NCBI GenBank assembly: GCA_037135275.1
Contig: JBAXKQ010000002.1
Coordinates: forward strand, 1 to 63,884
DNA: 63,884 bases
Reading direction: 5' to 3'
Origin: a bacterium
GTDB lineage: Bacteria; Verrucomicrobiota; Kiritimatiellia; SPBP01
The notes below the pieces were generated by a model that was not told where the DNA came from, ran no database searches, and saw nothing but the letters and a program-made list of their open reading frames with translations. Of the stretch, positions 895 through 28,268 are shown in pieces. Position 1 is the first letter of the stretch. The number at the start of each line of letters is the position of its first letter. A program made the translations under genes and the position numbers.

Positions 895-1324
895 AACGGG
901 CATTGAAGAAGTTGGTTCCACGGGTCGTGTGTCAATGGCTTCGTGATGAAACGAATCTCGACAACCCCAAAGTGACTCATATCAACCGGTGTCTTGAGTG
1001 GCGTAAAGATGCGACTTATGTCGAATCGATGTCTTTAGGGGTGAGTACTGTGTAGCTGTCAAGGCGAGGATAGAGTTTTCTATCGACCCTGACCCTGTGG
1101 ATGTGGAAGGACTGCGCAAGCCTGGGGAGATTTGTTTCAAGGAGACGTCTGATGAGTCTTTTGAGGTGCATGCCAGGTCATGTCTTGGTGAGACCAGAGT
1201 AGATGCGGCGCTGGTGGGGGCTTGCACGAATTCAGGCAGGCACTCCGTTATGTCTTGAATCTTGAACCTTGCATGAAGGAAGACGGCATCATCTTTATTC
1301 ACGACTGTTTGTGCGAGGATATCA

Positions 1325-2761: not shown

Positions 2762-2770
2762 GCGGGTCGC

Positions 2771-3835: not shown

Positions 3836-3890
3836 CCAATTGTCACCGGGCAGCGTTCTCATCCAAGGCGGCGGTGCCGGAGCGCTTGTC

Positions 3891-5791: not shown

Positions 5792-5940
5792 ATCCCTTTT
5801 CACAAACAATTCACAATTTCCTGACAACATTCCATTAGCCGTTCTGGTACTATTTCGGCGTGGGGAAAGGGAATCGCGGCCGTTGGACGTGGTTCGGCCT
5901 TCCCGGAGTCCGGTCGAGTTATCGGAGAGGAAAGAACAAC

Positions 5941-11900: not shown

Positions 11901-14900
11901 GCAGCCGACGAACAGCGCCGCCTACACGCTGGGTACTTCGAGGACCAATGGCCTCGAGTGGTACTCGGCAAGGGCCGGCGCCAACCTGGCGACCGTCTAC
12001 TACTCCACCAACGGCGTCACATACAGCGATCTCATTACCTTCAGCGGTATCGGGTTCACCGGCAACCAGGATGCGGACCCGTCCATCAACCAGAAGACTT
12101 GGGACATCTCCCGGCGGCTGATGCCGTCGCTCACGGCCCGCATCAAGGTCGTGGTCGGCACGACCGAGGCGGTTTCCAGCCAGTTCACGCTGCGCGGCAT
12201 CCGGATGATCCGCCCGGCGCTCGGGTCGGTCTACAACATCGGGGCGGTGACCAATGTCGCATGGCGGCATGCAGGGCTGTCGGCCAATCCGTTCGTCTCC
12301 AACTCCATCTCGGTGTCGGGCGAGGGTGGACCGTACGTGCAGGGCGGGCTGCCGAACAATGCGTCAGTCCTGAACCCGCTTACGCCCTGGACTGTTGACG
12401 CCGAGCTCGACCCGACGACGAACGCGGTGATCAAGATGGTTGTGACGGCGCCGGCTCAGGACACGGACGTGACGACATACTCGGATCCATTCACCCTCCG
12501 TGGAATCAAGTTCCTGAGCCCGTACACCGGTACCAACTGGGTGCTGCGCGGGCAGGTGATGGTGTCGTTCAGGGTGGCTGGGATGGGGTCCGGCGCGTTT
12601 GCCGACATCTATTACTCGGCGGACGGCGGGGCGACATTCGATACGGTCAACCCGGTGGCAAGCGGTGTGTCGGTGAATGACGGCATCGTGAGCGTGCCCT
12701 GGACGATCGAGAGTACGCCGGCCCTGACCCGGACCCCTTCCACCAACGCCTGCCTGCTGGCGGTGTGCGGTTCCTATACAAGCAGGTCCAAGACCTTCCA
12801 GGTCAGCGGGTTGAAGGTGACGGCGCCGACGGCGGCCGACGTGCTGGCGGTGTCGGATGGAACGAACACCGTCGCGTGGACGGGTGTGGGCGTGTCGGGC
12901 ACCTATAACGTCAGTTTCACCAGGTGGCCTGAGACCACGCCGGTTGACTTCAGCACCCCGGTGTGGACGGAAGTCATTGCGACCGGGGTTTCGGGGTGGT
13001 CGTGCGACTGGGCAATGACCGCCAATGCCGTCGGTTCGAACGTGACGGTCACAGTCAGTGACGGTACGTTCACGGCGACGTCCGCGGTCTTCCAGGTTGT
13101 GTCGAGCCCGGCGATCAAGATCATCAATCCCACGGCCGGCGACTTCTGGAAAGTGACCGAGACGAACGAGATCAGGTGGGTGAGGGCCGGCAACGTCTCG
13201 AACGCGTTCTCGGTGGCATGGTCCCCGTATCCGTACGAGGTTACCAATGTGCTGGCAATCGGTGCTTTCCCCCTCAGCGGCGGTGTATTCAGCTATGCCT
13301 GGGAGAACATACCGAACTCCATCGGGAAGGTGCGGATCATCGTCACCAACCAGGTCACGGAAGGCGTGAGGGACCAGTTCGAGGACTTCGAGATAGCCGT
13401 GAAGTTCGCCATCGATCCGTTGATAGGCGACCTGTTCGCCCTGCAGACCAGGGATGTCAACTGGACGACGTACGGGTCCATCTTCTCGGGGGTGGACTTC
13501 TACTATTCGCTGGACCCGTTCCGCCGGACCAACTACTGGCGCAAGATCAACACGACGCCGTTCATGGCGGTGGCGAACGAGCAGCCCAGCATATACTCGT
13601 GGCAGCTCCCGAACGTGAAGACCAACACGGTGTGGCTGCGCATCCAGGATCATGCCTACTCCAACAGGCTGTTCGACGCATCCAAGCCCGGACCCTACAA
13701 CGACCTCGGCATGCTGAATGTCAGGTATTACACGGTCTACTGGGAAGTCATGGATGCGATCACCAGCAACGACCTGGACAACCTGGCGGTGATCGACAGC
13801 TCAGGCTGGTCTCAATCGGGGCTGACATGCGCGGGAGCCAATACCATCTCGCACGAGTATCCGTGGGGCACCTGGAACACGGCGTGGATGAGGGAGTTCT
13901 TCTTCGACAATGTCGTGATGTACTGGGAGAGTGAGAACTACGCACTCGGGAGCCCTGCTGTCTGGACCCAGCAGGTATACATGGTGCGCTCGACCGTTGA
14001 GCCGGACTACCGGGCGATGGCCAATTTCTCGTACGAGACGTCGAACAAGGTCTTCACGATCCACGCCTGGCTGGAGCGCGGCGGCGAGATACTCGACACA
14101 CCAAGCAGGTGCAGGATCACGGTCTACGACGAAACCGGCAATGAGGTGCGCGTGCTGGACAGCGCCGGATCGCCGCCCGACGGCAGCCTGCTGGACTACG
14201 GCGTGTTCTGGATGGCGTGGGACGCCTCGGCGCTCAGTCCCAGCAGCGTCTATTTCGCCAGGGTGGAGATCGAGTTCTCAGGCGTGTGGTATTCGTCCGG
14301 CTTGACGTTCACGCTCAGGGTGCCGGTTGGCGAGGAGATATCCGGCATGATCGGCGGCATCTCGAACCAGGTGGCAGGCGTCTCCAACCAGGTCATTGGC
14401 GTCTATACGAGCCTCGTGGCGCACGAGGTGGAGCAGGCGGCATTCAGGGGCAGGACGGACAGCAACCTGGCCACCATTGCCTCCAGCCTCGGTGTCCTGA
14501 CCAACCTGTCCGACATGGCCACGTCGGTAAGCAACCTCGTCGCCGCCATGCAGGAGGTGGCGAAGATGACGAATATCTCCACAATGGCCGAGAGTTTGTC
14601 GAATATCTGGGATGCGGTCACGAATATCGGAGGTGTCGAGGATCAGTTGTTGCCGAAGATTACAGCCCGATCCACCACGATCAAGACCGGCAGCACGAAC
14701 ATGTTCGTCTATCGCACGAGGATGGGGCTGGGTTCGGGTCCGGTGATCACGGTCCAGAACGCGGCAGGGGCGACCAACCAGCAGGGGAGCATGGCTGAAA
14801 TCCCGAATACCGGCCTCTACAAGGCCGAGGTCGTGTTCGACCAGGGCTGGGGATTGGGCGAGTTCCCGGTTTCCTGCCGCGACAGCGCTGCTGAGAGTGC

Positions 14901-16263
14901 GCCGGGCGACCAGATCACCATCCAGGTGGTCGGCGAAGGCTACTGGACCGATGCGCAGTCACTTGCGTCAATGACCGGCCGGCTGGCGTATCTTGAGACG
15001 ACGGTCTCCAATGTGTTGGTGGTTGTCGGCGCGGCCGATTTCGGCGCTAACTTCAGCAATGTCATCGCGTCGGTCTCCAACCTGGAGACGATCGTGAACA
15101 GCACCAGCGTGTCCAACGCCGCTGCGATGGTAGTCCTGCGGTCCGATGTCAGCAACGTGCTGGCGTCGGTCACGAATCTGCAGGACCTGGTGGGCGGGAT
15201 GGGTGCATCCAATGTGGCATCGCTGGTGGCGCTCGGCGGCAACCTCAGTAATGTATTCGCGGCAGTGTCGAACCTGCAGGTTGTCGTGAGCGGTTCCGAT
15301 TCGTCCAACACGGCGGCCATGGCATCGCTGCGTTCCGATGTGAGCGATGTGCTGGCGTCGGTCACGAACCTGCAGGACCTTGTGGGCGGCATGGGCGTCT
15401 CCAATGCGGCATCGCTGGTGGCGCTCGGTGCCAACCTCAGCAATGTGTTTGCGGCAGTGTCGAACCTGCAGGATCTTGGCGCCTCGAATGCGGCATCGCT
15501 GGTGGCGCTTGAGACCAATGTCGCAACCGCACTTGGTGTCGTGAACAGTCTGGGTTCGCTGACGAACCTGGCGTCGCTCACGAGCCTTACCAACCTTGTC
15601 TCGGCGTTGGCGGACATTGACCTCACCACCATACAGTCCGGTGTCGCGGATCTTCAGACCAGGGTGAACCAGATGGACTGGGCCCTGGTGCAGCAGACCG
15701 TGGCCGGGCTTGCCGCGATGCAGGCGACTGTGGACAGCTCGTTTGCCGACATCGGCGCGCAGATCACTGCTCTCGCCGGCGTGGCGGATTCTGTTGACGC
15801 GCTCAGCCTGCAGACTGGTGCGGCGATAGCCGCCGGTGAAAAGGCTGCCAAGGAAGCGCGGTCGGCCAAGACGCAGGTGACAACACTCCAGGGGGCGCTC
15901 ACAACTCTCAGGGCGGCGCTCGGTCAGGGTGACAGGGATACCGCCATGGATATACTGGGCGGCCTCAGGGCCCAGATGGCGGATGTTCAAGGCGCAGTGA
16001 GCAAGCAGGTGAGCCTGCAGCCGGTGGTTGACGTGATGGTGCCGATAGCGGCGGACATCAACGCGCTGGCGAAGAGGAAGAATCTGGATGAACTCGTGAA
16101 CATCCCCGCCGAGCTGCGCATGCAGACGCAGGTGACTGAGCAGGGCTTGATGCAGGCGAACAACAAGATGGCCGAGATGAGCGCCGCGATCGAGTTCCTG
16201 AACAAGCTCGTCGACAGGGTGGCGAATCCGCCGGAAGTCATGACCTACTGGACAACGGAGTAG
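5941..16263 (+). CDS. Giant (3,440 aa) secreted/surface protein: 4 LamG (laminin_G_3-type) modules, about 11 Ig-like beta-sandwich repeats, C-terminal repetitive alpha-helical region
   Basis: Single uninterrupted ORF. ATG 5941 (MNFMRLF..., basic stretch then VVAATTIITLAATAAFAGSA) is preferred over GTG 5860. LamG hallmark ends are DELAVYDRALSQEEV, DEMAIYTRQLSGIEL, DEVVVFQRALSDAEV and DEVAVHDRVLQPVEI. There are recurring ~100-aa repeats such as ITPVGGSEAVRSQWQIGTTNYVRWTAAGAGSSVDITYSPDGGSSWYTIA. The C-terminal region has SNV..VSNLQ heptad-like repeats. Confidence 0.9.
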   Translation: MNFMRLFQKLYPSARTSRATRRPRIPSRLPVVAATTIITLAATAAFAGSATNTWNMSTNADYYIAPTNQPLIMIDSTQGVARLILLSDEIHRSTFGEYVTNGSAHVSTKLGPDVALSLKQLGGVYQNSGTFISRVLDSGSPANTWQKMYARATYGSIINSPAEIQTGGSGPVALYHLNSDWNDTLGLRNLSPMAGASLVTPGQFGAKCGFVDGGVSGYATSASGFPEMSKITVSMWIKASRSQSQIVQYVFGLGNLTFALHISGFYSDANSAPGSITVVVSSNPSSTTGGQFTDSKDVGVWRHIVAVYDSTAAQKTRIYKDGVELPMMSQKATGTVPTTGSMIVGMRYDKIIGFQGAIDELAVYDRALSQEEVLDLYSRGLSFFFQLRGGNTTAETTNTSNQFTGPDGTTNSYYFGENRILQTAGSFDVTNQYAQYKAYLIKDTSGNTPWFDAVTLFGDLGMDVDYSFLDFRRGDMSQSTTNYPGLSDTPYLSLAKKENGGYYTNGTYVSRAMDAGSSVNWRKFEWQAPGELTNDIQGLIALYHLKSWGDAQGVVGGDNTPASVTMADSSGSMPKLGMDCGRFDGVSSHVTGFPGLSTNIMTVEFWINDDNPQDGIMTLASYSNGPAYLAISNGIVITRGFANITPQVYVNGLTGSRKLMAGWNHVAITFDKVLAGAALDVGVANGDYMQGLMDEMAIYTRQLSGIELKAHYLLGRQSVGGVAKFAFRTADSIAALTGGVWSTESTTPFDPNSLGQYFQYRLTMEGDGSASPAVKNITVGYLNPGWQYMYDHDREAIYQGAFVGGTTKWSGDEVMLVDQSQWGPLNLSSLEAGLVGEWRLDESSWGTVSGTPGGNGTALGGAQPIVDARVGLRSAQFSVTNQYLTLGSPSVGSGDFTVGAWVKSTASNRCAIVSTFAGGAHYTLEFNGDGTTNVPGKAALVIDTAPTDKKVVASVLTDINDGRWHHVAGMRRGDTLHLYIDGDRVASANIGSAYGSVGSGTIYVGKYGTSNLFLRGQVDEVVVFQRALSDAEVGELSGTAYRVRDRGIYTSEIIDAGREVIWQTLSWNADAPYNKPLSTVYDTNIVALWHMDSNTLDSAGTFDGTLAGGAGFNSAGRFDSCLSLNGTVQWMGNITDAEELRPPNLTVEAWVYPTAVDSRIVFDKSSGGQGYQLGTDSSGRPVFKVGSVLCIDPALSLRTGAWTHLVATYSGSELALYVNGEIRARAAGSGSMGTPDARIGADGAGSGCFAGFIDEVAVHDRVLQPVEILDHYRAGAVTLKFQARSGSNATLIASAPFVGPAGTTNSYFTVATGEGLQAVIPKGQCFQYKAYLGTENHRFTPRLHGVTVESSGYSTENPAVETASGVFFPGKITTFVHTMATNNDASVRYQISGDNGATWYYWPLFTNAWVNADLYGGGWENASPVGTVNQYVGNFYRQLYEKTGVNLLWRAFLHSTGSDQVAIDAVSIGYSRGRVLVTFPSGTETDTRSLVVGTPYDITWSWLGTVSNNITVELLDGTNVVSVLGTGLPNNGVFRTVISEQRGTNYYIRVKDGNDPNNIWDLSDGPFWLREQLHMTSPDGGEKWYIGRTNLVRWDSPKWGAQNLVGPIDIWFSGDAGTNWFVVATPTNASGTNVYYWNTPLTNWQFVSENARMGVATPGAFDPASAFYGDISDGTYTNAGIVVTFPATGNAVNMGEATTLEWYAAGAGSHGVTVDFFDGVAWTNISTNATCVPGYNTLGCVLEAKDPSEAARIRITANDDPVNVTGISGIFILADINIITPVGGSEAVRSQWQIGTTNYVRWTAAGAGSSVDITYSPDGGSSWYTIASGWANTNSSVGNVVTNVSPPWVVAGPPSSNSMIRVKSVSQSSLFATTPPYFDVSGVQVTYPNGGEYWEFGRTNLATWLHQAAGANVGIDCAYISSPTTNDYENIVASASIFNGRWVIPAANVRRPTTVGKLRIRAISPPSGIPMEDYSDATFTIRGLSVTQPTNSAAYTLGTSRTNGLEWYSARAGANLATVYYSTNGVTYSDLITFSGIGFTGNQDADPSINQKTWDISRRLMPSLTARIKVVVGTTEAVSSQFTLRGIRMIRPALGSVYNIGAVTNVAWRHAGLSANPFVSNSISVSGEGGPYVQGGLPNNASVLNPLTPWTVDAELDPTTNAVIKMVVTAPAQDTDVTTYSDPFTLRGIKFLSPYTGTNWVLRGQVMVSFRVAGMGSGAFADIYYSADGGATFDTVNPVASGVSVNDGIVSVPWTIESTPALTRTPSTNACLLAVCGSYTSRSKTFQVSGLKVTAPTAADVLAVSDGTNTVAWTGVGVSGTYNVSFTRWPETTPVDFSTPVWTEVIATGVSGWSCDWAMTANAVGSNVTVTVSDGTFTATSAVFQVVSSPAIKIINPTAGDFWKVTETNEIRWVRAGNVSNAFSVAWSPYPYEVTNVLAIGAFPLSGGVFSYAWENIPNSIGKVRIIVTNQVTEGVRDQFEDFEIAVKFAIDPLIGDLFALQTRDVNWTTYGSIFSGVDFYYSLDPFRRTNYWRKINTTPFMAVANEQPSIYSWQLPNVKTNTVWLRIQDHAYSNRLFDASKPGPYNDLGMLNVRYYTVYWEVMDAITSNDLDNLAVIDSSGWSQSGLTCAGANTISHEYPWGTWNTAWMREFFFDNVVMYWESENYALGSPAVWTQQVYMVRSTVEPDYRAMANFSYETSNKVFTIHAWLERGGEILDTPSRCRITVYDETGNEVRVLDSAGSPPDGSLLDYGVFWMAWDASALSPSSVYFARVEIEFSGVWYSSGLTFTLRVPVGEEISGMIGGISNQVAGVSNQVIGVYTSLVAHEVEQAAFRGRTDSNLATIASSLGVLTNLSDMATSVSNLVAAMQEVAKMTNISTMAESLSNIWDAVTNIGGVEDQLLPKITARSTTIKTGSTNMFVYRTRMGLGSGPVITVQNAAGATNQQGSMAEIPNTGLYKAEVVFDQGWGLGEFPVSCRDSAAESAPGDQITIQVVGEGYWTDAQSLASMTGRLAYLETTVSNVLVVVGAADFGANFSNVIASVSNLETIVNSTSVSNAAAMVVLRSDVSNVLASVTNLQDLVGGMGASNVASLVALGGNLSNVFAAVSNLQVVVSGSDSSNTAAMASLRSDVSDVLASVTNLQDLVGGMGVSNAASLVALGANLSNVFAAVSNLQDLGASNAASLVALETNVATALGVVNSLGSLTNLASLTSLTNLVSALADIDLTTIQSGVADLQTRVNQMDWALVQQTVAGLAAMQATVDSSFADIGAQITALAGVADSVDALSLQTGAAIAAGEKAAKEARSAKTQVTTLQGALTTLRAALGQGDRDTAMDILGGLRAQMADVQGAVSKQVSLQPVVDVMVPIAADINALAKRKNLDELVNIPAELRMQTQVTEQGLMQANNKMAEMSAAIEFLNKLVDRVANPPEVMTYWTTE
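15030..15510 (+). repeat. In-frame tandem repeat (192-nt / 64-aa period, about 2.5 copies) inside the giant gene
   Basis: The unit starting at 15109 (GTGTCCAACGCC...) recurs at 15301 (TCGTCCAACACG...) with near-identical blocks (GTGCTGGCGTCGGTCACGAA[T/C]CTGCAGGACCT). The sub-block AATG[T/C]GGCATCGCTGGTGGCGCT is present three times. Confidence 0.85.
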
Positions 16264-16471
16264 CGGGCATCTGGAGGGGGAGGGTTGTTTGCGGCCTGTC
16301 TGAAGGCGCCTCTTTTCTCCTCAGGCGCATGCGCCCCGGATCCCGATGGGAACGGAGCTGAACGATCCGGCGTGGATGCCCATTCTTGTCTGCATCCACG
16401 GCCTGAAGTGAACTGGCAACTTGCATCCGTCCGTTACAGTTGATAGTCTCGCAGCATACATGTGTAACCTC

Positions 16472-17785
16472 ATGAACATCACTGGTGTGGGACGGGGCGC
16501 CGTGGTGCCGGCATGGCGGTTTCTCGTGCTGTTTCTCCTCTCCGGTGTCTTGGCGGGCGGTGTATACGCGCAAGGCAACATTGTCCTGGCCATCAAGGCC
16601 GTCAATCCCACGCAAACCGACAGCACCGTCAGGGTCAGCGCATTGCTGCCGAAGGGAGTCAAGCCTGCGGATGTGGTGGACGCGGCCGGCATGGAAGTGA
16701 AGTATGATCCCAATGTGGCCCTGTACTGTGTCCGTGCCGAGGAGAGGCTGCCGGCGGGTGGCAACAGGGAATACCGGGTGGTGCTGCGGGATATCTGGGT
16801 TGTGCCGGCTGAGCTTATCGCCGAGCTGCGCACCCACGCCGTCGGGCTTGCCGGGCAGCTTGCCGGAACCAAGCGCAAAGACTCGGCCGCATCGATCAGG
16901 ATGCGGATCGAGGGCGGCCTGGACCAGCTGGAAAAGTGGCAGGAGCGGTATCGCGCCGGTCCCAGCGCCACGCCAGTCGCCCACATACAGGCGTACGGCC
17001 GCAGCATGGATCTCCTGAAGCGGGTGATTGATGACACCGGGATACTCGAAACCCAGGCGAAAGACGAGGGCATCTATGTGCCCAAGCCACTTGGACCGCC
17101 GCCGCCCCGCGCGGAGGCCGGTGAAGCGGCAGTCGGTGAGACGCCGCGCAAAATCAGGCTGGATATCCGCAATGCCGGCAGGACAGAGCAAAAGATTCCC
17201 GTCCGGAGTTACCTCCCGCGCGAGGTGCGTCCCGAGGACGTGAGCGGCGATGACCGTGTCGAGGTCAGGTACGATGCCGAGCGGAGCGCCTGCTACCTTT
17301 TCAGCGAGGGCATAGCCGTAGGCCCCAATGAGACGGTGAACATAGAGGTGCTGGTGGCAGACCGGTGGATAGTGGCGCCGGGGCGGTACGCATTACTCGA
17401 GACCAAGGCCACCAACGTGCAGGCAAAGGCGGTTCTTGCCGGCCGTGATGATGTCAAGAACCAGGCCCAGGCGCTGTTGAACCAGCTAGTGACGGTACGG
17501 GCGGCCGAGCGGCCGCCGTTCGGCGACGAGTATATCGCGGATTACCACCGGAAGGTGGAAGACGTCGACAGGATCGAGGAGGAGCTTCTCAAGCTTGAGG
17601 CACGGATGGCGCCGTCCCAGGAGCGACCGATATTCGATGCCTCGGTATTGAACCAGGTCGAGGCGCCGAGCCGGAGCACGACATGGATCATAGTCTTCAC
17701 GGTAATTGGCTTTCTTTTCTTCTTCAGCGTGCTATTGTTCCTTCGCTGGTACGGCAAGGCCAAGGACGAAACAATGTCAGGGTGA
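16472..17785 (+). CDS. Orphan exported protein with N-terminal signal peptide, two tandem copies of a beta-rich + helical module, and a C-terminal TM anchor
   Basis: ATG 16472 gives MNITGVGRGAVVPAWRFLVLFLLSGVLAGGVYAQG. Internal duplication: LLPKGVKPADVVDAAGMEVKYDPNVALYCV vs YLPREVRPEDVSGDDRVEVRYDAERSACYLF, and REYRVVLRDIWVVPAELIAEL vs ETVNIEVLVADRWIVAPGRYALL. C-terminal TM is TTWIIVFTVIGFLFFFSVLLFLRWY. The stop lies 2 nt before the alpha1 ATG. Confidence 0.75.
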   Translation: MNITGVGRGAVVPAWRFLVLFLLSGVLAGGVYAQGNIVLAIKAVNPTQTDSTVRVSALLPKGVKPADVVDAAGMEVKYDPNVALYCVRAEERLPAGGNREYRVVLRDIWVVPAELIAELRTHAVGLAGQLAGTKRKDSAASIRMRIEGGLDQLEKWQERYRAGPSATPVAHIQAYGRSMDLLKRVIDDTGILETQAKDEGIYVPKPLGPPPPRAEAGEAAVGETPRKIRLDIRNAGRTEQKIPVRSYLPREVRPEDVSGDDRVEVRYDAERSACYLFSEGIAVGPNETVNIEVLVADRWIVAPGRYALLETKATNVQAKAVLAGRDDVKNQAQALLNQLVTVRAAERPPFGDEYIADYHRKVEDVDRIEEELLKLEARMAPSQERPIFDASVLNQVEAPSRSTTWIIVFTVIGFLFFFSVLLFLRWYGKAKDETMSG

Positions 17786-17787
17786 CG

Positions 17788-19251
17788 ATGGACCTGAAGA
17801 TAAATCTCCTGCAATTGAAGGAACGCGGCGTTGTCGCGGAGATGAAGCAGGATATTGTGCACATCTCCGGCCTTGCCAACTGCATGAACGGCCAGCTCGT
17901 CCAGATCAGCGATGCGGCCGAGGGTGTTATCGTCGGTTTCGACCAGGAATACGCACTTGTCCTGCTGGTTGAGCAGCACGGCACAGTCAAGCCGGGTGAC
18001 CAGGCGACGTCGCTGATCAAGTCGTTTTCCATCCCGGTCGGCGACGGGTTCATAGGCCGGCGTGTTGACGCGCTGGCCGCCCCGCTGGACGGCCGCGGGC
18101 CGATCAATGCCACCAGGCAATACCCCATATTCGGGAAGGCGCCGTCGGTGCTCGAACGGCGGCAGCTTACCGAGGTCCTGCCCATGGGTGTGAAGATACT
18201 GGACATGATGATACCGATAGGCAAGGGGCAGCGCGAACTGATCATCGGCGACCGAATGACCGGCAAGACCACCGTAGCGACCGATGCCATTCTCATGCAG
18301 AAGCACACCGGCACGATCTGTGTCTACTGCTGCATCGGCAAGGCAGAGGCGTCGCTCGGGAAGGTGATCGAGCTGTTCGATACCAACGACGTCTGGAAAT
18401 ACGGCATAATCGTGGCCGCGACGGCGTCCGATTCCATGGGGAAGCAATACCTCGCGCCCTACGTCGCAACGAGCATTGGTGAGTACTTCATGTACGAAAA
18501 GGGTATGGATGTGCTGGTGGTTTTCGACGACCTGACGAAGCACGCCTGGACCTACCGGCAGATGTCGCTGCTCCTCGAGCGCTCCCCTGGCCGCGACGCC
18601 TACCCCGGGGATATTTTCTATCTCCACTCGCAGCTGGTTGAAAGGGCGGGCAGGTTGAGCATAACGCGGGGCGGTGGCTCCATGACCCACCTGCCGATCA
18701 TTGAGACCCTGCAGGGGGACGTGACGGGCTATATTCCATCTAACACAATTTCGATGACCGACGGGCAGGTCTACATGAACACGACCCTCTTCGGTGAGGG
18801 TTTCAAGCCGGCCATCGACGTCAAGCTGTCCGTATCTCGTATCGGCAGCAAGGTCCAGTGGCGAGCGATGAAGACCCTGGCCGGAATGATGCGGCTGGAA
18901 TACCTGAACTTCCTCCAGCTGCTCAAGCTGACGCGGGTCAAGGCTGGGGTTTCAGCCGAGGTGGAGGGCCGTCTCCGGCGCGGCAAAGTGGTGGCTGAAC
19001 TGCTCAAGCAGCCCAACAACGCGCCGGTACCGATGGAAGAGCAGGTTGTAACCCTCTACGCTTTCAGGGAAGGCTTTTTCGACGATGTCCAGCCGGAGAA
19101 TGTCCAGGCGCGGCTTGAGACCCTGTTGTCGAGCATGAGGCGCGGCAGGCCGGAGTTGATGGCCGAGCTGGTCAGGCAAAAGGATCTTACCGAGGAAATC
19201 AAGGAGGGGCTCAAGCATGAGTTCGCTCGGCTCCGGAATTCCGCTGTTTAA
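17788..19251 (+). CDS. atpA: F-type ATPase alpha subunit paralogue 1 (487 aa, divergent)
   Basis: GDRMTGKTTVATDAILMQK, DDLTKHAWTYRQMSLLLERSPGRDAYPGDIFYLHSQLVERAGR and LSVSRIG (Arg finger retained, CGT 18838-18840). ATG at 17788 follows the upstream TGA (17783-17785). Confidence 0.85.
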   Translation: MDLKINLLQLKERGVVAEMKQDIVHISGLANCMNGQLVQISDAAEGVIVGFDQEYALVLLVEQHGTVKPGDQATSLIKSFSIPVGDGFIGRRVDALAAPLDGRGPINATRQYPIFGKAPSVLERRQLTEVLPMGVKILDMMIPIGKGQRELIIGDRMTGKTTVATDAILMQKHTGTICVYCCIGKAEASLGKVIELFDTNDVWKYGIIVAATASDSMGKQYLAPYVATSIGEYFMYEKGMDVLVVFDDLTKHAWTYRQMSLLLERSPGRDAYPGDIFYLHSQLVERAGRLSITRGGGSMTHLPIIETLQGDVTGYIPSNTISMTDGQVYMNTTLFGEGFKPAIDVKLSVSRIGSKVQWRAMKTLAGMMRLEYLNFLQLLKLTRVKAGVSAEVEGRLRRGKVVAELLKQPNNAPVPMEEQVVTLYAFREGFFDDVQPENVQARLETLLSSMRRGRPELMAELVRQKDLTEEIKEGLKHEFARLRNSAV

Positions 19252-19252
19252 A

Positions 19253-20716
19253 ATGAAGCTGGCCGAGATCGGCCATGTTCGGGACGTGAAGAAGATCATC
19301 GCCCGCGTCACCGGCCTGCCGTCGTGCCTCAACGGCCAGCTGGTTGATTTTGGCGAGGGGGTGCGCGGCATCGTCATGGGCTTTGACCGCGAGGACGTCC
19401 TCGTCCTGGTCCTGGGCGACGAGACCAAGCTCCGCATGGGCAAGCCCGTCACAGGGATCAGCGAGCCGTTCACGATCCCGGTCGGTGAGAAATGCATCGG
19501 CCGCATGATCAACGCCCTGGGCGAGGCCGTGGACGGCAAGCAGTTGATCGTGCCTGATATGCGCCGCGCGGTCATGCGCGATTCACCCTCGATCACCGAC
19601 CGTGGCCCCGTGAATGAACCGCTCCTGACAGGCACCAAGGTGGTGGATATCTTCATCCCGGTTGGCAAGGGGCAGCGCCAGTTGATCGTCGGCGACCGCA
19701 TGACCGGCAAGACTGTCATCGGGGTCGACGCGATCGTCAACCAGAAGGGCAAGGATGTTATCTGCATCTACTGCTGCATCGGGAAGGCGATGTCGTCGCT
19801 CGAGAAAGCGGTCAGCGTCCTCCACGACTCCGGCGCGCTCGAGTACACGATTGTCATGCTCGCCCTCGACAACGCGCCGGCCGGGGAGCAGTACCTGCTC
19901 CCCTCGGCGGCCGCGACAATGGGCGACTACTTTGCCGAGAGCGGGCGCGATGTGCTGGTTGTCCTTGATGACATGACCAAGCACGCGTGGGCCTACAGGC
20001 AGCTCTCCCTGCTGCTCGAGCGGCCGCCGGGTCGCGAGGCTTATCCTGGCGACATCTTCTACGAGCACACGAAGATCATGGAACGGGCGGGCCGCTACTG
20101 CGAGAAGAAGGGCGGCGGGTCGATGACGTTCCTGGGCATTGCCGAGACGCTGGAAGGCGACCTGACCGGCTACATCCCGTCGAACCTCATATCCATGTGC
20201 GACGGGCTGGTGTTCCTGAGCAATCCGCTGTTCGGCAGCGGAATCCGGCCGGCGGTGGACTTCACGCTGTCGGTGTCGATCGTGGGAGGCAGAACCCAGC
20301 CACCCGTGCTGAGGGCGGTAAGCGCCGACCTGCGGGTCCAGTACGCCCATTATCTCGAGGTGTCAAAACTGAGCAAGCTCCAGGCCAGCGTGTCGGCCGA
20401 GGCTGAACGCGTGATACGGCGCGGTGAGGCGATAGCCTCGATCGTCCAGCAGGGGCAGTTTGCGCCGGTGTCCCTCGCGGAGGAAGTTGTTTTGGCGTTC
20501 GCCACGCACCGCGGCAGGCTGGACAGGCTGTCGGTCGAACAGCGGAAAGCCTTCTGCAAAGATGTGTTTGGTTTTACCCGCAGGAAGAAGCCGGATATCC
20601 TGGACCTCATCACCGAGGAGGCCGAATTGACTGTGGAGCTCGAGAAGAAGCTCAACGAGCTCCTGGACGAGTACTTTGCCCAGGACGACGGCGGCGGGCA
20701 GCAGGCGCAGCAGTGA
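19253..20716 (+). CDS. atpA: F-type ATPase alpha subunit paralogue 2 (487 aa, Arg-finger position substituted)
   Basis: GDRMTGKTVIGVDAIVNQK and DDMTKHAWAYRQLSLLLERPPGREAYPGDIFYEHTKIMERAGR. LSVSIVGG replaces SVSRVG (ATC 20279-20281). ATG 19253 is 1 nt after the alpha1 TAA. Confidence 0.85.
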   Translation: MKLAEIGHVRDVKKIIARVTGLPSCLNGQLVDFGEGVRGIVMGFDREDVLVLVLGDETKLRMGKPVTGISEPFTIPVGEKCIGRMINALGEAVDGKQLIVPDMRRAVMRDSPSITDRGPVNEPLLTGTKVVDIFIPVGKGQRQLIVGDRMTGKTVIGVDAIVNQKGKDVICIYCCIGKAMSSLEKAVSVLHDSGALEYTIVMLALDNAPAGEQYLLPSAAATMGDYFAESGRDVLVVLDDMTKHAWAYRQLSLLLERPPGREAYPGDIFYEHTKIMERAGRYCEKKGGGSMTFLGIAETLEGDLTGYIPSNLISMCDGLVFLSNPLFGSGIRPAVDFTLSVSIVGGRTQPPVLRAVSADLRVQYAHYLEVSKLSKLQASVSAEAERVIRRGEAIASIVQQGQFAPVSLAEEVVLAFATHRGRLDRLSVEQRKAFCKDVFGFTRRKKPDILDLITEEAELTVELEKKLNELLDEYFAQDDGGGQQAQQ

Positions 20717-20741: not shown

Positions 20742-20972
20742 ATGTTTCACGTGACGATTCTCAACCCGAAGCACGTGGTTTTTGAAGGTGATGCGGAGAG
20801 CGTGTTCCTGCCGGGTGACAAGGGTGAGTTCGAGATTCTGACGTTTCACGCCCCGATACTGAGCCTGTTGAAGCCGGGCAAAGTTGTGGTAGACTGGAAA
20901 ACGACCATACCGATAAAGAACGGAATGGTTAAGTTCGATCACAAGGGTTGTGTGGTGCTGGTGCAGGAATGA
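20742..20972 (+). CDS. atpC: F-type ATPase epsilon subunit, beta-sandwich domain only (76 aa)
   Basis: MFHVTILNPKHVVFEGDAESVFLPGDKGEFEILTFHAPILSLLKPGKVVV resembles the epsilon N-terminal domain. The ORF ends before any C-terminal helical hairpin. The stop overlaps the next start (ATGA 20969-20972). Confidence 0.7.
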   Translation: MFHVTILNPKHVVFEGDAESVFLPGDKGEFEILTFHAPILSLLKPGKVVVDWKTTIPIKNGMVKFDHKGCVVLVQE

Positions 20973-21193
20973 ACATATTCAGAAATATCGTGGTCTTTCT
21001 CGTGCTGCTGGTGACGATTCTCGGGCCTTCAGCGGTTATTGCCGCCATCGGCCACGCGAGCATAAGGGCCCTCGGACGGAACCCGTCCGCGGCCCCGAAG
21101 ATCATGCAGGCAATGATCGTTGCGCTGATTTTCTCGGAGTCGATCGCGGTGATCGCGCTCCTGATACTGTTTCAGCTGTTCGCCGGCAAGTAG
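20969..21193 (+). CDS. atpE: F-type ATPase c subunit (74 aa hairpin)
   Basis: Two hydrophobic helices joined by a polar loop GRNPSAAP (cf. ARQPE). Helix 2 is IVALIFSESIAVIALLILF, with the conserved carboxylate at Glu57 (GAG 21137-21139). Confidence 0.75.
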   Translation: MNIFRNIVVFLVLLVTILGPSAVIAAIGHASIRALGRNPSAAPKIMQAMIVALIFSESIAVIALLILFQLFAGK

Positions 21194-21227: not shown

Positions 21228-21983
21228 ATGGACATGGGTATCCTGAAGGAAATGGCCGGTTCTCTGGCGATCATCCTGGTCGCGCAGTTCGTCGTATTCG
21301 CTGTGATCGTCATCGTTCTCCGGAAGCTGCTGCTCAGCGACACGATGAGCGCGATCAGCCGGATGAAGACGGTGGAATCCGAGCTGGCGAAGAAGGAGGA
21401 CGTGATCAGGCAGCGGATGGACGCCCACGAGCAGGAGTTCCTGAAAAAGCAGGCTGCCGCCCAGGAGGAGATTGATCGGCGCCGCGCGGCCGACGAACAG
21501 GATCTCGGCCGGCTGAAGGACAGGATCAAGGCGGAGGCCAAGACCGAGGCGGACAAGATCCTGGGCGACGCGCAGCTGGCCAAGGAGCGCATCCGCGAGC
21601 AGCTGGTCCGCGAGATGGCCGGCAAGGCCGTTGAGTACGCCGGCGACCTCTTCAAGATGGTCGTCAGCAAGAATGTGGGCGAGAAGCTCAATATGGCGTT
21701 TGTCGAAGAGCTGATAGGCGCCCTGTCGGAGGTGGACGAGACGAGCATCCACGTCGAGGCAAACGAGTCCGAGTTCATTGCCAGCCACAAGCTGGACCCG
21801 GCCCAGAAGGGCCGGCTCGAGGCGCTGCTGGCCCAGAAGTTCGGCGTGACGATCAACATCAACGAGAAGATCGACGAGACCCTGCTGGCGGGCCTGGTCA
21901 TCAAGCTGGGCAGCCTGGAAATTGACGGAAGCCTCCTGAATCGCTACAAGGAAGGCGTGAGCGAGATCAAGAAGCAGGTCTAG
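21228..21983 (+). CDS. F-type ATPase b subunit fused to a delta (OSCP)-like C-terminal domain
   Basis: N-terminal TM (LAIILVAQFVVFAVIVIVL), a long charged helix (EQEFLKKQAAAQEEIDRRRAADEQDLGRLKDRIKAEAKTEADKIL), and a C-terminal LLAGLVIKLGSLEIDGSLLNRYKE typical of delta C-termini. Confidence 0.65.
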   Translation: MDMGILKEMAGSLAIILVAQFVVFAVIVIVLRKLLLSDTMSAISRMKTVESELAKKEDVIRQRMDAHEQEFLKKQAAAQEEIDRRRAADEQDLGRLKDRIKAEAKTEADKILGDAQLAKERIREQLVREMAGKAVEYAGDLFKMVVSKNVGEKLNMAFVEELIGALSEVDETSIHVEANESEFIASHKLDPAQKGRLEALLAQKFGVTININEKIDETLLAGLVIKLGSLEIDGSLLNRYKEGVSEIKKQV

Positions 21984-22028: not shown

Positions 22029-22949
22029 GTGCAGCTGAGCGAGCTAAAGAAGGAGATGAAGTTCAACAAGGAACTGCTGTCCCTTGCCGGCACGCTCAAG
22101 AATGTCGCCAGCTCCAAGTATCACATGCTGGAGCGCGAAAAGGAGCGGTTCGGGCAGTTCATGGAGGCCTTCACGGACTTCTTCAAGGTCGTCAACCTCG
22201 CCGATACGCATCATCCCCTCGTTCGCAGCGCCAACGACACTCTGGGCATCATCGCGGTCACATCCGACTCGGGCTTCATGGGCGGCCTCAACGCGGGAAT
22301 AATCGAGACGGTTCACAAGTTGCAGGGCGAAAGGCCCGACGACAAGACTGAGCTGATCGTTATCGGCGAGAAGGGCGCGGCAAAGCTCTCGGATGCCGGC
22401 CGCAAATTCAAGTTCTTCAATGGCATCGAGAACGAGACCCGGTACGAACAGGCCCTCGAAGTGACCGACTACGCCGTAAGGGAGGTCGAGGAAGGCCGGA
22501 TCGGCGTCCTTGTGCTTGTCTATCCCAACTCGCTCTCGTTCACGCGCCAGGTGATAGAGACAATCACCGTCCTGCCGTGCGCCGAACTGTTCGACAAGAA
22601 CATACCGGATCCCGGGGCGGAAAAGATCGAGGGCCACGGGGTCCTGGCGTCGTCGAGAAGAGTGGTCATCGAGTCGGCGTTTGAGGACATGGTCGAGTAC
22701 CTGGCGCGGACGTGGGTGGCGTCGAAGCTTTATGAGGTGTTCGAGGACAGCAAGCTGTCGGAGTTCGGAGCAAGGGCGATGCACCTGGAAGGCAGTGAGC
22801 AGAAGATGGAGAAGGAGTTGAAAAAGCTCCAGTACCGTGTCTTCAGGGCGTCGCACGAGAAGATCGACAAGGGTATGCGCGAGAGCTTCTCGGCCGGCAA
22901 TATCAGGAAGAAGAAGAGGAAGGCTGAAGCCAGGGCGGCCGCCGCCTGA
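22029..22949 (+). CDS. atpG: F-type ATPase gamma subunit (306 aa)
   Basis: LGIIAVTSDSGFMGGLNAGI (cf. STDRGLCGGLN), EEGRIGVLVLVYPNSLSF, and C-terminal helix SEFGARAMHLEGSEQKMEKELKKLQYRVFRASHEKIDKGMRE. GTG start. Confidence 0.75.
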   Translation: MQLSELKKEMKFNKELLSLAGTLKNVASSKYHMLEREKERFGQFMEAFTDFFKVVNLADTHHPLVRSANDTLGIIAVTSDSGFMGGLNAGIIETVHKLQGERPDDKTELIVIGEKGAAKLSDAGRKFKFFNGIENETRYEQALEVTDYAVREVEEGRIGVLVLVYPNSLSFTRQVIETITVLPCAELFDKNIPDPGAEKIEGHGVLASSRRVVIESAFEDMVEYLARTWVASKLYEVFEDSKLSEFGARAMHLEGSEQKMEKELKKLQYRVFRASHEKIDKGMRESFSAGNIRKKKRKAEARAAAA

Positions 22950-22993: not shown

Positions 22994-24388
22994 ATGACCG
23001 AGGCATCCCAGTTTCAGGCGAAGCCGCCGAGGAAGGGCAAGGTTATCGGTGTGCAGGGGCCCGTCGTTGACGTGCTGTTTGCCACGGTGGAGGACATGCC
23101 GGACCTCAACGAGGTCGTGCACGCCCGGACTTTCGACAAGAAGGACGTCAAGCTGCTGGCGGCCGAACACCTGGAGGGCAACATCGCCAGGTGCATAGCG
23201 CTGTCCTCGACCCAGAACCTGCAGCGCAATTCCGTCGCAACGGCGGAGGGACAGGCGCTCACGATACCAGTGGGCAAGGAGTTGTTCGGCCGCATCATCA
23301 ACTGTATGGGTGATCCCATCGACGGCCTCGGCCCGATCGTCACGTCACAGAGGTCATCCATCCACAGGGACGTCAGCAGCGTGCGCGTCGACGTCGACAA
23401 GGCCGGTTCCAAGCTTGAGCTGTTCGAGACTGGCATCAAGATCATCGACCTGCTGTTCCCCGTCATGAAGGGGACGAAGACCGGCATGCTCGGCGGCGCG
23501 GCCTGCGGCAAGACGGTCATCATCCTCGAGCTCATCAACAACGTCGTGTCGAAGCACAGCGGGGCCTGCGTCTTCGGCGGCATCGGCGAGCGCATCAGGG
23601 AAGGCAACGAACTCTTCAACGACTTCCAGGACCACGGCGTTCTCGGCAAAATCATGATGGCGTTCGGCCAGATGGATGAGCCGCCCGGAGCCCGCTTCAA
23701 CGTGATCCTGACGGCCATTACACTCGCAGAATGGCTGCAGTCCCAGAAGACGGAAGTGCTGCTGTTCCTGGACAACGTATACCGCTTTGTCCAGGCGGGC
23801 GCGGAGATCTCCACGCTGCTTGGCAGGGTGCCGTCCGAAACCGGCTACCAGCCTACGCTCAGCTCGGAGGTCGGCGACGTGCACGAGAGAATCAAGGGCT
23901 CGGTCTCGGCGTTCGAGGCGGTCTATGTGCCGGCGGACGACCTGACCGACCCGGCTGTCGTGACCATCTTCAGCTACCTGGATTCGGTGCTGGTGCTTTC
24001 ACGCGACATGGTCCAGCTCGGGTTGTACCCGGCTATCGACCCACTCGCATCCTCCTGCAGCAACATGAACGCGGCAATCGTCGGTCAGCGCCACTTCGGC
24101 GTCGCCCAGGAGGTGATCAGGATCCTGACAAAGTACGACGAGCTGAGGCGTATCGTGGCGGTTATCGGGCTGGACGAGCTCTCGAAGGCCGATCGCATCC
24201 TCTACGAACGGGCGAAGAAGCTCCAGAATTTCCTTACGCAGCCGTTCTGCGTCGCGGAGGCCTACACTGGCAAGAAGGGGGTCTATGTGACGGTCGAGGA
24301 GTCCATCGCAGGGGCCGAGTCCATCATCGACGGGCGAATGGACAGCAGGCCCGACGAGTCCTTCTACATGATCGGCAAGATCGAGTAA
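22994..24388 (+). CDS. atpD: F-type ATPase beta subunit (464 aa, divergent P-loop)
   Basis: GGAACGKTVIILELINN, GIGERIREGNELF, QMDEPPGARF, LLFLDNVYRFVQAGAEISTLLGRVPSETGYQPTL and DELSKAD. Confidence 0.9.
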   Translation: MTEASQFQAKPPRKGKVIGVQGPVVDVLFATVEDMPDLNEVVHARTFDKKDVKLLAAEHLEGNIARCIALSSTQNLQRNSVATAEGQALTIPVGKELFGRIINCMGDPIDGLGPIVTSQRSSIHRDVSSVRVDVDKAGSKLELFETGIKIIDLLFPVMKGTKTGMLGGAACGKTVIILELINNVVSKHSGACVFGGIGERIREGNELFNDFQDHGVLGKIMMAFGQMDEPPGARFNVILTAITLAEWLQSQKTEVLLFLDNVYRFVQAGAEISTLLGRVPSETGYQPTLSSEVGDVHERIKGSVSAFEAVYVPADDLTDPAVVTIFSYLDSVLVLSRDMVQLGLYPAIDPLASSCSNMNAAIVGQRHFGVAQEVIRILTKYDELRRIVAVIGLDELSKADRILYERAKKLQNFLTQPFCVAEAYTGKKGVYVTVEESIAGAESIIDGRMDSRPDESFYMIGKIE

Positions 24389-24398
24389 CGCTGGCATT

Positions 24399-26036
<1,638 letters not shown>

Positions 26037-26146
26037 TGCCGCCTCACCGCGGGCAGGATGCCCCCCCCGAGACCAGGGAGGGCGCTCCGCCGCCGAACGC
26101 GCCGCCGGATGTTTGCGTCTGACAGGGAAGCACCACGGGATACACA

Positions 26147-27364
26147 ATGCCGCGTTTCACCTACAAGGCCAGGAATGCCGAGCTCAAGACCATCGAGGGC
26201 GAACTCGTTGCCGGGAACGAGGCGGAGGCCCTGGCCCGGCTCGATGCCATGGGCTATTGCCCTGTGTGGGTGAGGGAGATGGCGCAAGAGCCGGAGGATG
26301 CGATTCCGCGTGCGCGCCGGCGTGAGAGAATCCCGCACCGTGAAGTCACGGTTTTCACCCGCCAGATGGTCGGGCTCACGAAGTCGGGCGTGCCAATTCT
26401 CAAGGCATTGCGTACGGTCAGGGAACAGAGCGCCAACCCGAGGTTCTGCGCCGTCCTCGCCCACCTGGAGGAAACGGTCAGGGATGGGAGGATGCTGTCC
26501 GAGGCGCTCGCGCAGCATCCGCACGTGTTTTCACAGCTGTACGTCAACATGGTGCGGGCGGGCGAATCGGCCGGAATCCTTGATGTCATCCTCCTGCGGC
26601 TCGCGGAAGCGAGGGAGCGGGAGGACGCCATCAGGCGGAAGCTGCAGGCGGCTTCGGTCTATCCGCTGCTGGTGCTGGCCGTGGGCGTGGTCACAGTCTT
26701 TGTGGTCATTACATTCTTCATGCCGAAGATAGCCGGGATGTTCAGGAATGTTGACGACCTGCCGCTGCCGACGGCGCTGCTGATCGGCCTCAGCGAGGGC
26801 ATCCGGCACTACTGGCCCTGGGTGCTGGTGCCGGCGGTGCTGCTGGCTGCGATACTCAGGCGCATAGGCTCCGGGGCAAAAGGCAGGGCGATCCTGGACA
26901 ACGCCAGGCTGCGGCTGCCTCTCATCGGGGCTTTCACGCTGCAGGCGGAAATGGCCCGTTTCTCGCGGACCATGTCCCTCCTCATCAGCGCCGGCATACC
27001 GGTCGAGAAGGGTCTTGCCTTGAGCGCCGACACCATGACCAATAGCGTACTCAGGAACGAGATGGATGAGGTGCGGCGAACAACGGTGCAGCAGGGCAGG
27101 TCAATCGCCTCGGGCCTGAAGAACTCGAGGCACGTTCCGGCTTACCTGCAGAGCATGGCGGCTGTCGGCGAGGAGGGCGGAAGGCTGGATGAGGCGTTTG
27201 CCGACGTTGCCTTCTACTACGAGAACGAGCTCGAGCGGCAGATCGGCATGATGACGTCGCTGGTGGAGCCCATCCTGATCCTGGTCGTCGGGGCCGTGGT
27301 GGGGTTTATCGTTTTCGCGATGATGCTGCCGATATTCGAAATGACGAAGTCGATGGCCAGGTGA
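26147..27364 (+). CDS. gspF: Type II secretion / T4P platform protein (GspF/PilC family)
   Basis: 405 aa. MPRFTYKARNAELKTIEGEL... start, duplicated T2SSF-type halves and three hydrophobic segments. Confidence 0.9.
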   Translation: MPRFTYKARNAELKTIEGELVAGNEAEALARLDAMGYCPVWVREMAQEPEDAIPRARRRERIPHREVTVFTRQMVGLTKSGVPILKALRTVREQSANPRFCAVLAHLEETVRDGRMLSEALAQHPHVFSQLYVNMVRAGESAGILDVILLRLAEAREREDAIRRKLQAASVYPLLVLAVGVVTVFVVITFFMPKIAGMFRNVDDLPLPTALLIGLSEGIRHYWPWVLVPAVLLAAILRRIGSGAKGRAILDNARLRLPLIGAFTLQAEMARFSRTMSLLISAGIPVEKGLALSADTMTNSVLRNEMDEVRRTTVQQGRSIASGLKNSRHVPAYLQSMAAVGEEGGRLDEAFADVAFYYENELERQIGMMTSLVEPILILVVGAVVGFIVFAMMLPIFEMTKSMAR

Positions 27365-27490
27365 CGGCTGGTCCGGCAATCTCCAGTACGCGTATTTCAA
27401 TTCCCACAGTTTAAGGGTGTACGCTGGGATCGCTGTGCTGTATATTCGTGACGTATTGAGGCCGGTATTGTATCCATGGAGGTGTGCACC

Positions 27491-27910
27491 ATGCGCACGC
27501 GCAACCCGCGATCGGCATTCACGCTGATCGAGATCATGATAGTTGTCATCATTCTCGCAGCCCTCGCGGCCATGGTGGTGCCTTACCTGGGCGATGTGCC
27601 CGACACGGCCAAGAGCAGGATTGCGAAGGTGGAGATCAAGTCCATCGGCACGGCCCTTCAGCTCTACAAGCTCGAAACAGGCGGGTTTCCGAAGGACCTT
27701 GCGGCGTTGCAGTCCGTTCCACAGGGGGTTGCCGGGAGGACGACAAAGTACCTCATGAACGACCCCATTGACCCGTGGGGCGCCCAGTACAAGTACAAGT
27801 ATCCAGGGACGCGACAGAATACACCCGGTTATGACCTGTACTCGACCGGCCCCAATAAGTTTGACGACAATGGCGCCACCGATGACATCACCAACTGGAA
27901 ACAGGACTAG
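27491..27910 (+). CDS. gspG: Major pseudopilin (GspG-like)
   Basis: MRTRNPRSA|FTLIEIMIVVIILAALAAMVVP prepilin N-terminus, plus KVEIKSIGTALQLYKLETGGFP and DPWG...Y.Y typical of GspG. GGAGGTG lies 6 nt upstream of ATG 27491 (the listed ORF starts at 27476). Confidence 0.85.
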   Translation: MRTRNPRSAFTLIEIMIVVIILAALAAMVVPYLGDVPDTAKSRIAKVEIKSIGTALQLYKLETGGFPKDLAALQSVPQGVAGRTTKYLMNDPIDPWGAQYKYKYPGTRQNTPGYDLYSTGPNKFDDNGATDDITNWKQD

Positions 27911-28268
27911 CGTTGGTGCGGGCGGCTTCACCCTCATAGAAACACTTGTTTCTGTCACCATCCTCGCTTTCGGCATCGTGGGCGTCATGGCCGCCTTTGA
28001 CGTGTGCATGTCGACCCTGTCTTCGGCAGGGGAACGAATGAGGGCCACAGCCTTCATGAACGAGAAGATCTCCGGCATGGCATGCGGCGGCGAGATGGCG
28101 GCCGGCCAGGCGGCAGGCGCCGGCGACGGATTTGCCTGGCAGGTCGATATTCACCCGGCGGCCCGTCCGTCAGGGGCGGCGGTAAACGAAATCGTGGTGT
28201 CCGCATGGCTGCCGGGCAAGGAAGCCGCGGCCTATTCCCTTTCAACCTACGTCGTGGAAAGTCCATGA
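27882..28268 (+). CDS. Minor pseudopilin (GspI/GspH-like)
   Basis: Leader MTSPTGNRTSVGAGG|FTLIETLVSVTILAFGIVGVMAAF, which is a class III signal with Glu at +5. Small size. Confidence 0.7.
   Translation: MTSPTGNRTSVGAGGFTLIETLVSVTILAFGIVGVMAAFDVCMSTLSSAGERMRATAFMNEKISGMACGGEMAAGQAAGAGDGFAWQVDIHPAARPSGAAVNEIVVSAWLPGKEAAAYSLSTYVVESP

Follow-up and report, generated by a model that had tools for sequence, protein, structure and literature searches.

Divergent F-type ATPases encoded beside pilus genes have been described in Omnitrophota. A 'symbiotic' F-type ATPase/type IVa pilus (T4aP) locus, with an alpha subunit distinct from the respiratory alphas, was reported across that phylum by Seymour et al. 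2023 (Nat Microbiol, PMC10066038), who suggested that it helps the bacteria to attach to, or move on, the cells of a host. Loci resembling type II secretion systems (T2SS) were found by West-Roberts et al. to adjoin the giant genes of Omnitrophota. Here we analysed a stretch of 63,884 nucleotides from a bacterium of the Kiritimatiellia (contig JBAXKQ010000002.1), called the window below, which encodes an F-type ATPase cluster of this kind with two alpha subunit genes in tandem, the second of which, alpha2, carries isoleucine at the position of the catalytic arginine finger. Neither two alphas nor the arginine finger are mentioned in PMC10066038, nor are Kiritimatiellia, Lentisphaerae or Verrucomicrobia, and two alphas or the finger are likewise not mentioned by West-Roberts et al. 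We found no two-alpha F-ATPase in the literature searched, which omits most subscription journals. Thus, the system is known already, from genomes alone, and the conserved fingerless alpha paralogue within it appears to be undescribed in that literature.

The window shares with the Omnitrophota locus a divergent F-ATPase beside GspE/PilB, GspF/PilC, pilin and PilMN genes, often with giant open reading frames (ORFs), and its ATPase genes lie within 10 kb of genes resembling those of type IV pili or T2SS. The window's alphas group with Omnitrophota-labelled alphas and apart from the respiratory ones, as judged against labelled database alphas and not against the reference sequences of PMC10066038. 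Differences from the Omnitrophota locus are that the alpha pair of the window's lineage is located upstream of epsilon, and that the nearest named homologues come from metagenome-assembled genomes (MAGs) of Lentisphaerae, Kiritimatiellae and Verrucomicrobia. The features of the alpha pair are:

17788-19251, plus strand: alpha1, the Arg-type (finger-bearing) alpha subunit, 487 amino acids, with PF00006 and PF00306
18838-18840, plus strand: CGT codon of alpha1 R351, the arginine finger (column of E. coli alphaR376 and bovine alphaR373), placed by HMMER alignments
19201-19207, plus strand: AAGGAGG, the Shine-Dalgarno sequence of alpha2, within the alpha1 coding sequence and 9 nucleotides ahead of ATG 19217
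19217-20716, plus strand: alpha2, the fingerless (Ile-type) alpha paralogue, 499 amino acids, with PF00006, PF00306 and PF02874
20279-20281, plus strand: ATC codon of the alpha2 Ile in the finger column, I355 from the true start and I343 by the earlier numbering
20291-20293, plus strand: AGA codon of the Arg in alpha2 'GGR', four residues past the finger column

Both proteins match PDB alpha chains near full length (HMMER, E=2e-132 for alpha1 and 8e-133 for alpha2) and both pass the NCBIfam atpA model TIGR00962, narrowly, with 514 and 493.5 bits at a cutoff of 484.45. The three-domain alpha architecture of beta-barrel, nucleotide-binding domain and C-terminal bundle is present in each, as is the P-loop GDRMTGKT, the G, K and T of which are invariant among 26 alpha1 and 38 alpha2 sequences. 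Alpha1 and alpha2 share 42% identity, and each is about 36% identical to E. coli alpha, so that the copy is not recent; two complete plus-strand ORFs at this distance bear out the old tandem duplication of diverged alphas proposed in an earlier note on this DNA. Aligned by HMMER with the PDB alpha chains and E. coli alpha, LSVSRIG of alpha1 and LSVSIVGG of alpha2 fall on the canonical LSVSRVGG, a motif in which the finger Arg is present in 62 of 64 canonical alpha representatives. The same note was right that alpha1 keeps this Arg and that alpha2 has Ile in its column.

The dichotomy is not peculiar to the window. We fetched 80 metagenomic loci with the c subunit of the cluster as a specific probe (flanks up to ±10 kb; taxa are named solely as labelled by the sources), and a scan of genome contigs with the alpha2 protein added at least one locus (L004). 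The finger Arg is present in all 36 alpha1-class ORFs of the fetched loci and Ile in all 53 alignable alpha2-class ORFs, one further ORF being gapped at this column. Ile was also found in 120/120 of the best database homologues of alpha2 (56-87% identity; labelled as Lentisphaerae, Kiritimatiellae and Verrucomicrobia MAGs), followed in almost all of them by GG[RK]. The dichotomy between Arg and Ile copies, which the earlier note had proposed to check in orthologous clusters, is therefore kept there. A search seeded with the fingerless alpha of an Omnitrophota-type tandem locus (L086) returned 42 more sequences with Ile and two with Thr, the other matches being Arg-type paralogues; neither Arg nor Lys occupies the finger column in any of these 44 Omnitrophota-type fingerless alphas. 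The two Thr sequences (P0439 and P0441, MSFSTVGG[KR]) are the sole fingerless cases without Ile that we saw. At least two phylum-level groups have Ile fixed at the finger.

The codons of these residues have turned over. The finger-column Ile of alpha2 is written ATT in 17 sequences, ATC in 22 and ATA in one, and the finger Arg of alpha1 is written by four different codons. Since Ile and Arg are kept despite this synonymous turnover, they are held by selection and not by recent common descent. Pairwise ratios of nonsynonymous to synonymous substitution rates (dN/dS) were 0.06-0.21 for alpha2 and 0.02-0.17 for alpha1. All fingerless alphas were monophyletic in neighbour-joining (NJ) trees, the only type of tree computed, with 93% bootstrap, and alpha1, alpha2 and the Omnitrophota-labelled alphas formed one clade against 22-30 canonical representatives with 100% bootstrap. 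The fingerless state is fixed and under selection within one clade.

Three architectures were found. A single Arg-type alpha can stand in the canonical place, in the order epsilon, c, b/delta, alpha, gamma, beta, GspE and further genes (L015, L031, L087, L088, L090). The pair can occupy that same place, as b/delta, alpha with Arg, alpha with Ile, gamma, beta (L086, L089), the second alphas of both these loci carrying Ile too. Or the pair is shifted upstream of epsilon, as in the window and about 26 further loci. The fingerless alpha directly follows an Arg-type alpha in 26 longer loci and in L004, L086 and L089; it was never seen as the sole alpha in the loci examined, and Arg-type alphas do occur alone. 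These patterns mark alpha1 and alpha2 as ancient, co-inherited alpha paralogues of what is predicted to be a non-respiratory F-type ATPase.

The start of alpha2 had to be corrected. The earlier note gave both alphas exactly 487 amino acids with one nucleotide between them, and used the equal length and the short spacer as an argument for the duplication; both features are artefacts of a wrong alpha2 start codon, for alpha2 has 499 amino acids and its ORF overlaps the last 35 nucleotides of alpha1. In a comparison of about 35 orthologous loci, the counterpart of codon 19253 reads ATC, ATA, CTG, CTT or GTC in most cases and thus usually is no start codon, the ATG equivalent to window position 19217 is kept in the great majority, and the peptide MSS..GS.IPLFK that begins there is conserved as well. 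Most of them also retain the AAGGAGG, unchanged or altered at one or two positions. For these reasons, we place the alpha2 start at ATG 19217, and the comparison marks the Met at 19253 as internal. The alpha1 start at 17788 is supported by a conserved start codon in the orthologues. An overlap of 35-38 nucleotides with an internal Shine-Dalgarno sequence is present in the window, L001 and L003, and has the form of a translational-coupling arrangement; the junction is a 1-nucleotide overlap in L086 and a 12-nucleotide gap in L089. The claim that both N-termini are shorter than that of canonical alpha holds with the corrected start, since the alignments of both proteins begin at residue ~22-30 of canonical or solved alphas, and therefore the N-terminal helix of ~20 residues that binds delta/OSCP is missing in both. 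About 12 residues precede the barrel in alpha1 and about 19 in alpha2; the alpha2 N-terminus is conserved and exceeds that of the Arg-type partner by 4-7 residues.

Apart from the finger, alpha2 has changed little at positions where canonical alphas are constant. Only three alpha2-specific changes fall on positions that are at least 85% conserved among the 64 canonical alphas, namely (E. coli numbering) S295 to T, T349 to C and R376 to I. T349 is the Thr of S-I-T-D-G-Q, and Cys replaces it in 37 of 38 alpha2 sequences. All Arg-type alphas, among them 68 paralogues of the Omnitrophota type, and 64/64 canonical alphas keep this Thr, which is relaxed in the Omnitrophota-type fingerless alphas (T 36, L 5, A 2, V 1). 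The segments 347-351 and 373-376 of E. coli alpha, to which two of these positions belong, both lie at the catalytic alpha/beta interface according to the literature on E. coli uncA mutants. A further change is common to both copies: at the alpha Q200 position, where 51 of the 64 canonical alphas have Gln, Lys is found in 26/26 alpha1 and 38/38 alpha2 sequences, in place of a Gln that is the alpha counterpart of the catalytic Glu in beta.

The Arg-type partners in Omnitrophota-type tandem loci often have a Walker-A motif of the form GDRM[IL]GKS or GDKMIGKT and not GDRMTGKT (for example L086 10001-11458, L089 7001-8458, P0301, P0304, P0326 and P0333); the known single-alpha relatives have GDR[ML]TGKT. 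The altered motif may reflect co-evolution of the partner's non-catalytic site. A complementary decay of the P-loop in these partners was considered and rejected, GDRM[IL]GKS and GDKMIGKT being still valid Walker-A motifs.

By its sequence, alpha2, a dedicated and selected paralogue that is predicted to be co-translated with a normal alpha and is accompanied by one fully competent beta, cannot donate the finger Arg. The reading we favour, with a probability of roughly one half, is a mixed alpha1/alpha2/beta head that would be asymmetric by construction and would contain one or two hydrolysis-impaired sites. The single beta would assemble with alpha1 and alpha2 into one alpha/beta heterohexamer, and the beta site or sites completed by alpha2 would be deprived of transition-state stabilisation, so that nucleotide would still be bound there but hydrolysed far more slowly. 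Instead of three equivalent strokes, such a head would combine one or two working sites with a slow or parked position built into it. More speculatively, the longer conserved N-terminus of alpha2 (…IPLFK…) might place this subunit uniquely with respect to the one b-delta stalk. It is conceivable, though somewhat less likely than not, that the enzyme is a natural 'hybrid' motor with alpha2 at a defined position of the head, possibly fixed via its N-terminus to b-delta, and with one catalytic site that permanently holds nucleotide and does not fire.

It might also be possible that the finger is compensated, the basic residue of GG[RK] at +4 reaching the beta site, so that all three sites are active and alpha2 differs structurally only, for instance in docking to b-delta via IPLFK. 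The earlier note had named replacement of the finger by the Arg of 'GGR' as a possible objection to its own proposal. The +4 column is K/R in all alpha1, alpha2 and single-alpha relatives (the alpha1 motif is RIG[SN][KR]) and differs among the canonical alphas (A 27, S 8, K 7, others), and it shifts towards Arg in the fingerless copies of both lineages: Arg is present in 34 of 38 alpha2 against 10 of 26 alpha1 sequences of the window's lineage, and in 16 of 44 fingerless against 1 of 68 Arg-type sequences of the Omnitrophota type, counts that are not phylogenetically independent. The conserved and longer N-terminus of alpha2 would also suit a purely structural difference. The basic residue is, however, found in Arg-type and single-alpha relatives as well, and thus predates the finger loss and is no alpha2-specific substitute; Lys is kept in 28 of the 44 Omnitrophota-type fingerless alphas; and a change or relaxation of the SITDGQ Thr in fingerless copies only is not expected with normal catalysis. 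The objection consequently falls in its simple form, the residue being at +4 and not at +3 and occurring in Arg-type alphas, and survives only as the shift towards Arg, and we regard a compensated finger as unlikely.

Somewhat less likely still is a separate role for alpha2 outside the alpha1 head, be it in an inactive or nucleotide-binding alpha2(3)beta(3) complex or as a regulator, an assembly factor or an adaptor, e.g. to GspE/GspF. The longest branch in the NJ tree and the most changes at conserved alpha positions are those of alpha2, and single-alpha clusters function without it, as such a role would allow. Yet alpha2 keeps the three-domain fold, the P-loop and almost every residue conserved throughout the alphas; its translation is coupled to that of alpha1; and beta, gamma, epsilon, c and b-delta are each present in one copy per cluster. 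A fingerless alpha was never the sole alpha in the loci examined, which suits a non-firing subunit that depends on a partner better than it suits an independent alpha2(3)beta(3). A decaying duplicate, with alpha2 as a pseudogene or neutral relic and its Ile an accident of one genome, has the missing Arg itself in its favour and nothing else, and its chance is so small that we set it aside. The pseudogene in relatives that the earlier note had envisaged did not turn up: alpha2 is intact in all loci, and decay is ruled out by the intact ORF, the conserved start and Shine-Dalgarno sequence, the low dN/dS and the Ile fixed through codon turnover. That the column is nearly invariant for one hydrophobic residue, Ile (rarely Thr), and does not show assorted substitutions speaks for a specific structural role at this interface more than for simple decay.

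Several points weigh against the mixed head. The single-alpha lineages, which may have lost the fingerless copy or may retain the ancestral state, are placed in the NJ trees with bootstraps of 25-68%. The single-alpha clusters indicate that the machine works without a fingerless alpha, and the contribution of alpha2 may thus be modulatory. Finally, the shift from Lys to Arg at +4 in the fingerless copies of both lineages could amount to a partial functional replacement of the finger.

The remaining subunits of the ATPase follow the alpha pair in the window:

20742-20972, plus strand: epsilon, 76 amino acids, beta-sandwich domain only and without the inhibitory C-terminal helices (PF02823; match to E. 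coli epsilon at 1e-6)
20969-21193, plus strand: c subunit, 74 amino acids, a hairpin with the conserved helix-2 Glu (weak PF00137 match in relatives)
21228-21983, plus strand: b-delta fusion of the peripheral stalk, 251 amino acids (PF00213, weak PF00430)
22029-22949, plus strand: gamma subunit (PF00231)
22994-24388, plus strand: beta, the catalytic subunit, single copy (NCBIfam atpD, 545 bits against a cutoff of 463)

No other protein of the cluster is conserved as well as beta, which keeps the P-loop, GERIREG (with the Glu and Arg of GERxRE), the Walker-B Asp and the adenine Tyr. Alpha and beta pass the curated F1Fo cutoffs, whereas gamma, epsilon, c and b-delta score far below them; the b-delta fusion is matched by E. 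coli b (2e-5) as well as by E. coli delta (4e-8). No new Arg in beta tracks the presence of alpha2. Positions weakly correlated with a fingerless alpha, from a comparison of two tandem with four single Omnitrophota-type loci, are 33, 86 and 376 of beta, 35 of gamma and 230 and 242 of b-delta, none of them in the catalytic site. Near residue 345, the beta motif ASSCSNM has Asn in place of the Arg of canonical DSTSR, an Arg that corresponds to the alpha finger by homology and points to the non-catalytic site. Taken with the Lys that all alphas of the clade have for Q200/Q208, this Asn resembles an exchange of charge between the two sides of the non-catalytic interface.

The ion-binding Glu in helix 2 of the c subunit is kept in at least 90% of 75 sequences. 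A Pfam match to subunit a was found neither among the called genes of seven loci with gene tables nor in the window, and phmmer with E. coli a gave no hit at E<1 among all window ORFs, a weak test confined to these ORFs, and a copy may lie elsewhere in the genome. Every other gene of the cluster was assigned, and with no subunit a found, the cluster falls short of a complete F1Fo operon. A conserved c Glu without a cluster-encoded subunit a would mean that the stator or ion path is provided by something else, or that the Glu has another role.

The ATPase is flanked by genes for surface and secretion functions:

5860-16263, plus strand: giant Laminin-G/ConA-like protein at the head of the cluster, 3467 amino acids (PF13385 three times; syntenic in relatives)
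16421-17785, plus strand: conserved envelope protein without assigned function, with an N-terminal signal or anchor and a C-terminal transmembrane helix ending in a conserved lRWyG
24399-31937, plus strand: T2SS/type-IV-pilus-like block of GspE/PilB, GspF/PilC, GspG, minor pseudopilins (J, K), a PilM-PilN fusion and a GspM/PilO-like protein, assigned by Pfam

The order of the window, from the giant Laminin-G protein through the envelope protein, alpha1, alpha2, epsilon, c, b-delta, gamma and beta to the T2SS/pilus-like genes, recurs in 26 longer loci. The GspE gene begins at 24399 and that of beta has its end at 24388, and this adjacency of ATPase and T2SS/pilus genes and their order are found in about 30 loci. 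Gene content and order identify the ATPase as a predicted non-respiratory F-type cluster linked to a pilus or secretion system and not as a housekeeping ATP synthase. The giant gene beside a T2SS-like operon matches the association of giant genes with T2SS reported for Omnitrophota.

Homologues of the giant protein in relatives exceed 3400 amino acids and reach more than 8400 (L003, L087, L088). Upstream of the giant gene, at 97-5069, are three glycosyltransferase genes (GT17-like, GT2 and GT1/GT4), the products of which might glycosylate the giant surface protein. The envelope protein at 16421-17785 has no Pfam or NCBIfam match and is syntenic in about 25 loci; the Arg of its lRWyG is located at the cytoplasmic end of the transmembrane helix. 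One single-alpha locus (L015) has a homologous domain fused to the end of the giant protein, and single-alpha Omnitrophota loci have a GGDEF protein in the slot of the envelope protein.

To our knowledge, every characterised F1, V1/A1 or F1-like head has one type of catalytic and one type of non-catalytic subunit and three chemically equivalent sites, and we know of studies on the number of sites needed, and on the effect of asymmetry on stepping and torque, in engineered hybrids only. If a mixed head is formed, the conserved fingerless alpha would be a natural experiment on site number and asymmetry in rotary motors, and it would also provide a handle on the pilus-linked 'symbiotic' F-ATPase of Omnitrophota and relatives. 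A hybrid motor, if real, would be an indexed asymmetric stepper working together with type-IV-filament machinery and a giant adhesin in host-associated or surface-associated bacteria from the PVC group (Planctomycetes, Verrucomicrobia, Chlamydiae) and Omnitrophota. There is a practical side as well: since both genes pass TIGR00962, annotation pipelines name both 'F0F1 ATP synthase subunit alpha', which hides the paralogy and leads to over-inference of chemiosmotic capacity for such lineages.

Compared with canonical AtpA, both alphas of the window have the domain architecture and the P-loop, and only alpha1 has the finger Arg. The cluster as a whole departs from canonical F1Fo by the truncated epsilon, the fusion of b to delta, the missing N-terminal alpha helix and a subunit a that was not found in the cluster. 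A similar case is the 'twin motor' of Mycoplasma mobile gliding (Gli-alpha MMOB1660, Gli-beta MMOB1670), which is likewise a non-respiratory F1-like complex associated with surface motility or attachment and with giant surface proteins. Like alpha1 and alpha2, Gli-alpha carries Lys in the alpha-Q200 column (K179). It keeps the arginine finger, however, and the M. mobile head is a plain alpha3beta3; in addition, the window cluster keeps recognisable epsilon, c and b-delta subunits, in contrast to the Mycoplasma type 2/3 ATPases. The family models agree with this separation: against the MMOB1660/MSC_0619 cutoffs of 600/520, alpha1 scores 396/304 and alpha2 375/270, and beta scores 410/376 against the MMOB1670/MSC_0618 cutoffs of 850/570. 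The N-ATPase (alt_F1F0) cutoffs are not reached either, with 467 and 491 for the alphas against 750, 481 for beta against 752 and 28 for gamma against 282.

The consequences of a missing finger have been observed in F1 from Bacillus PS3, which with Ala at the finger still rotated unidirectionally, at a rate reduced 10^3-10^4-fold and with roughly halved torque (PMC5380711). The engineered PS3 F1 mutants and hybrids likewise contain one or more crippled sites, but they are laboratory constructs, whereas the site predicted here would be formed by a dedicated, conserved paralogue. Duplicated ring subunits, each paralogue of which is required, are present in the proteolipid ring of the fungal V-ATPase (Vma3/Vma11/Vma16). 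There, the duplication concerns the membrane c-ring and involves no loss of a catalytic residue, whereas the paralogue described here belongs to the catalytic head.

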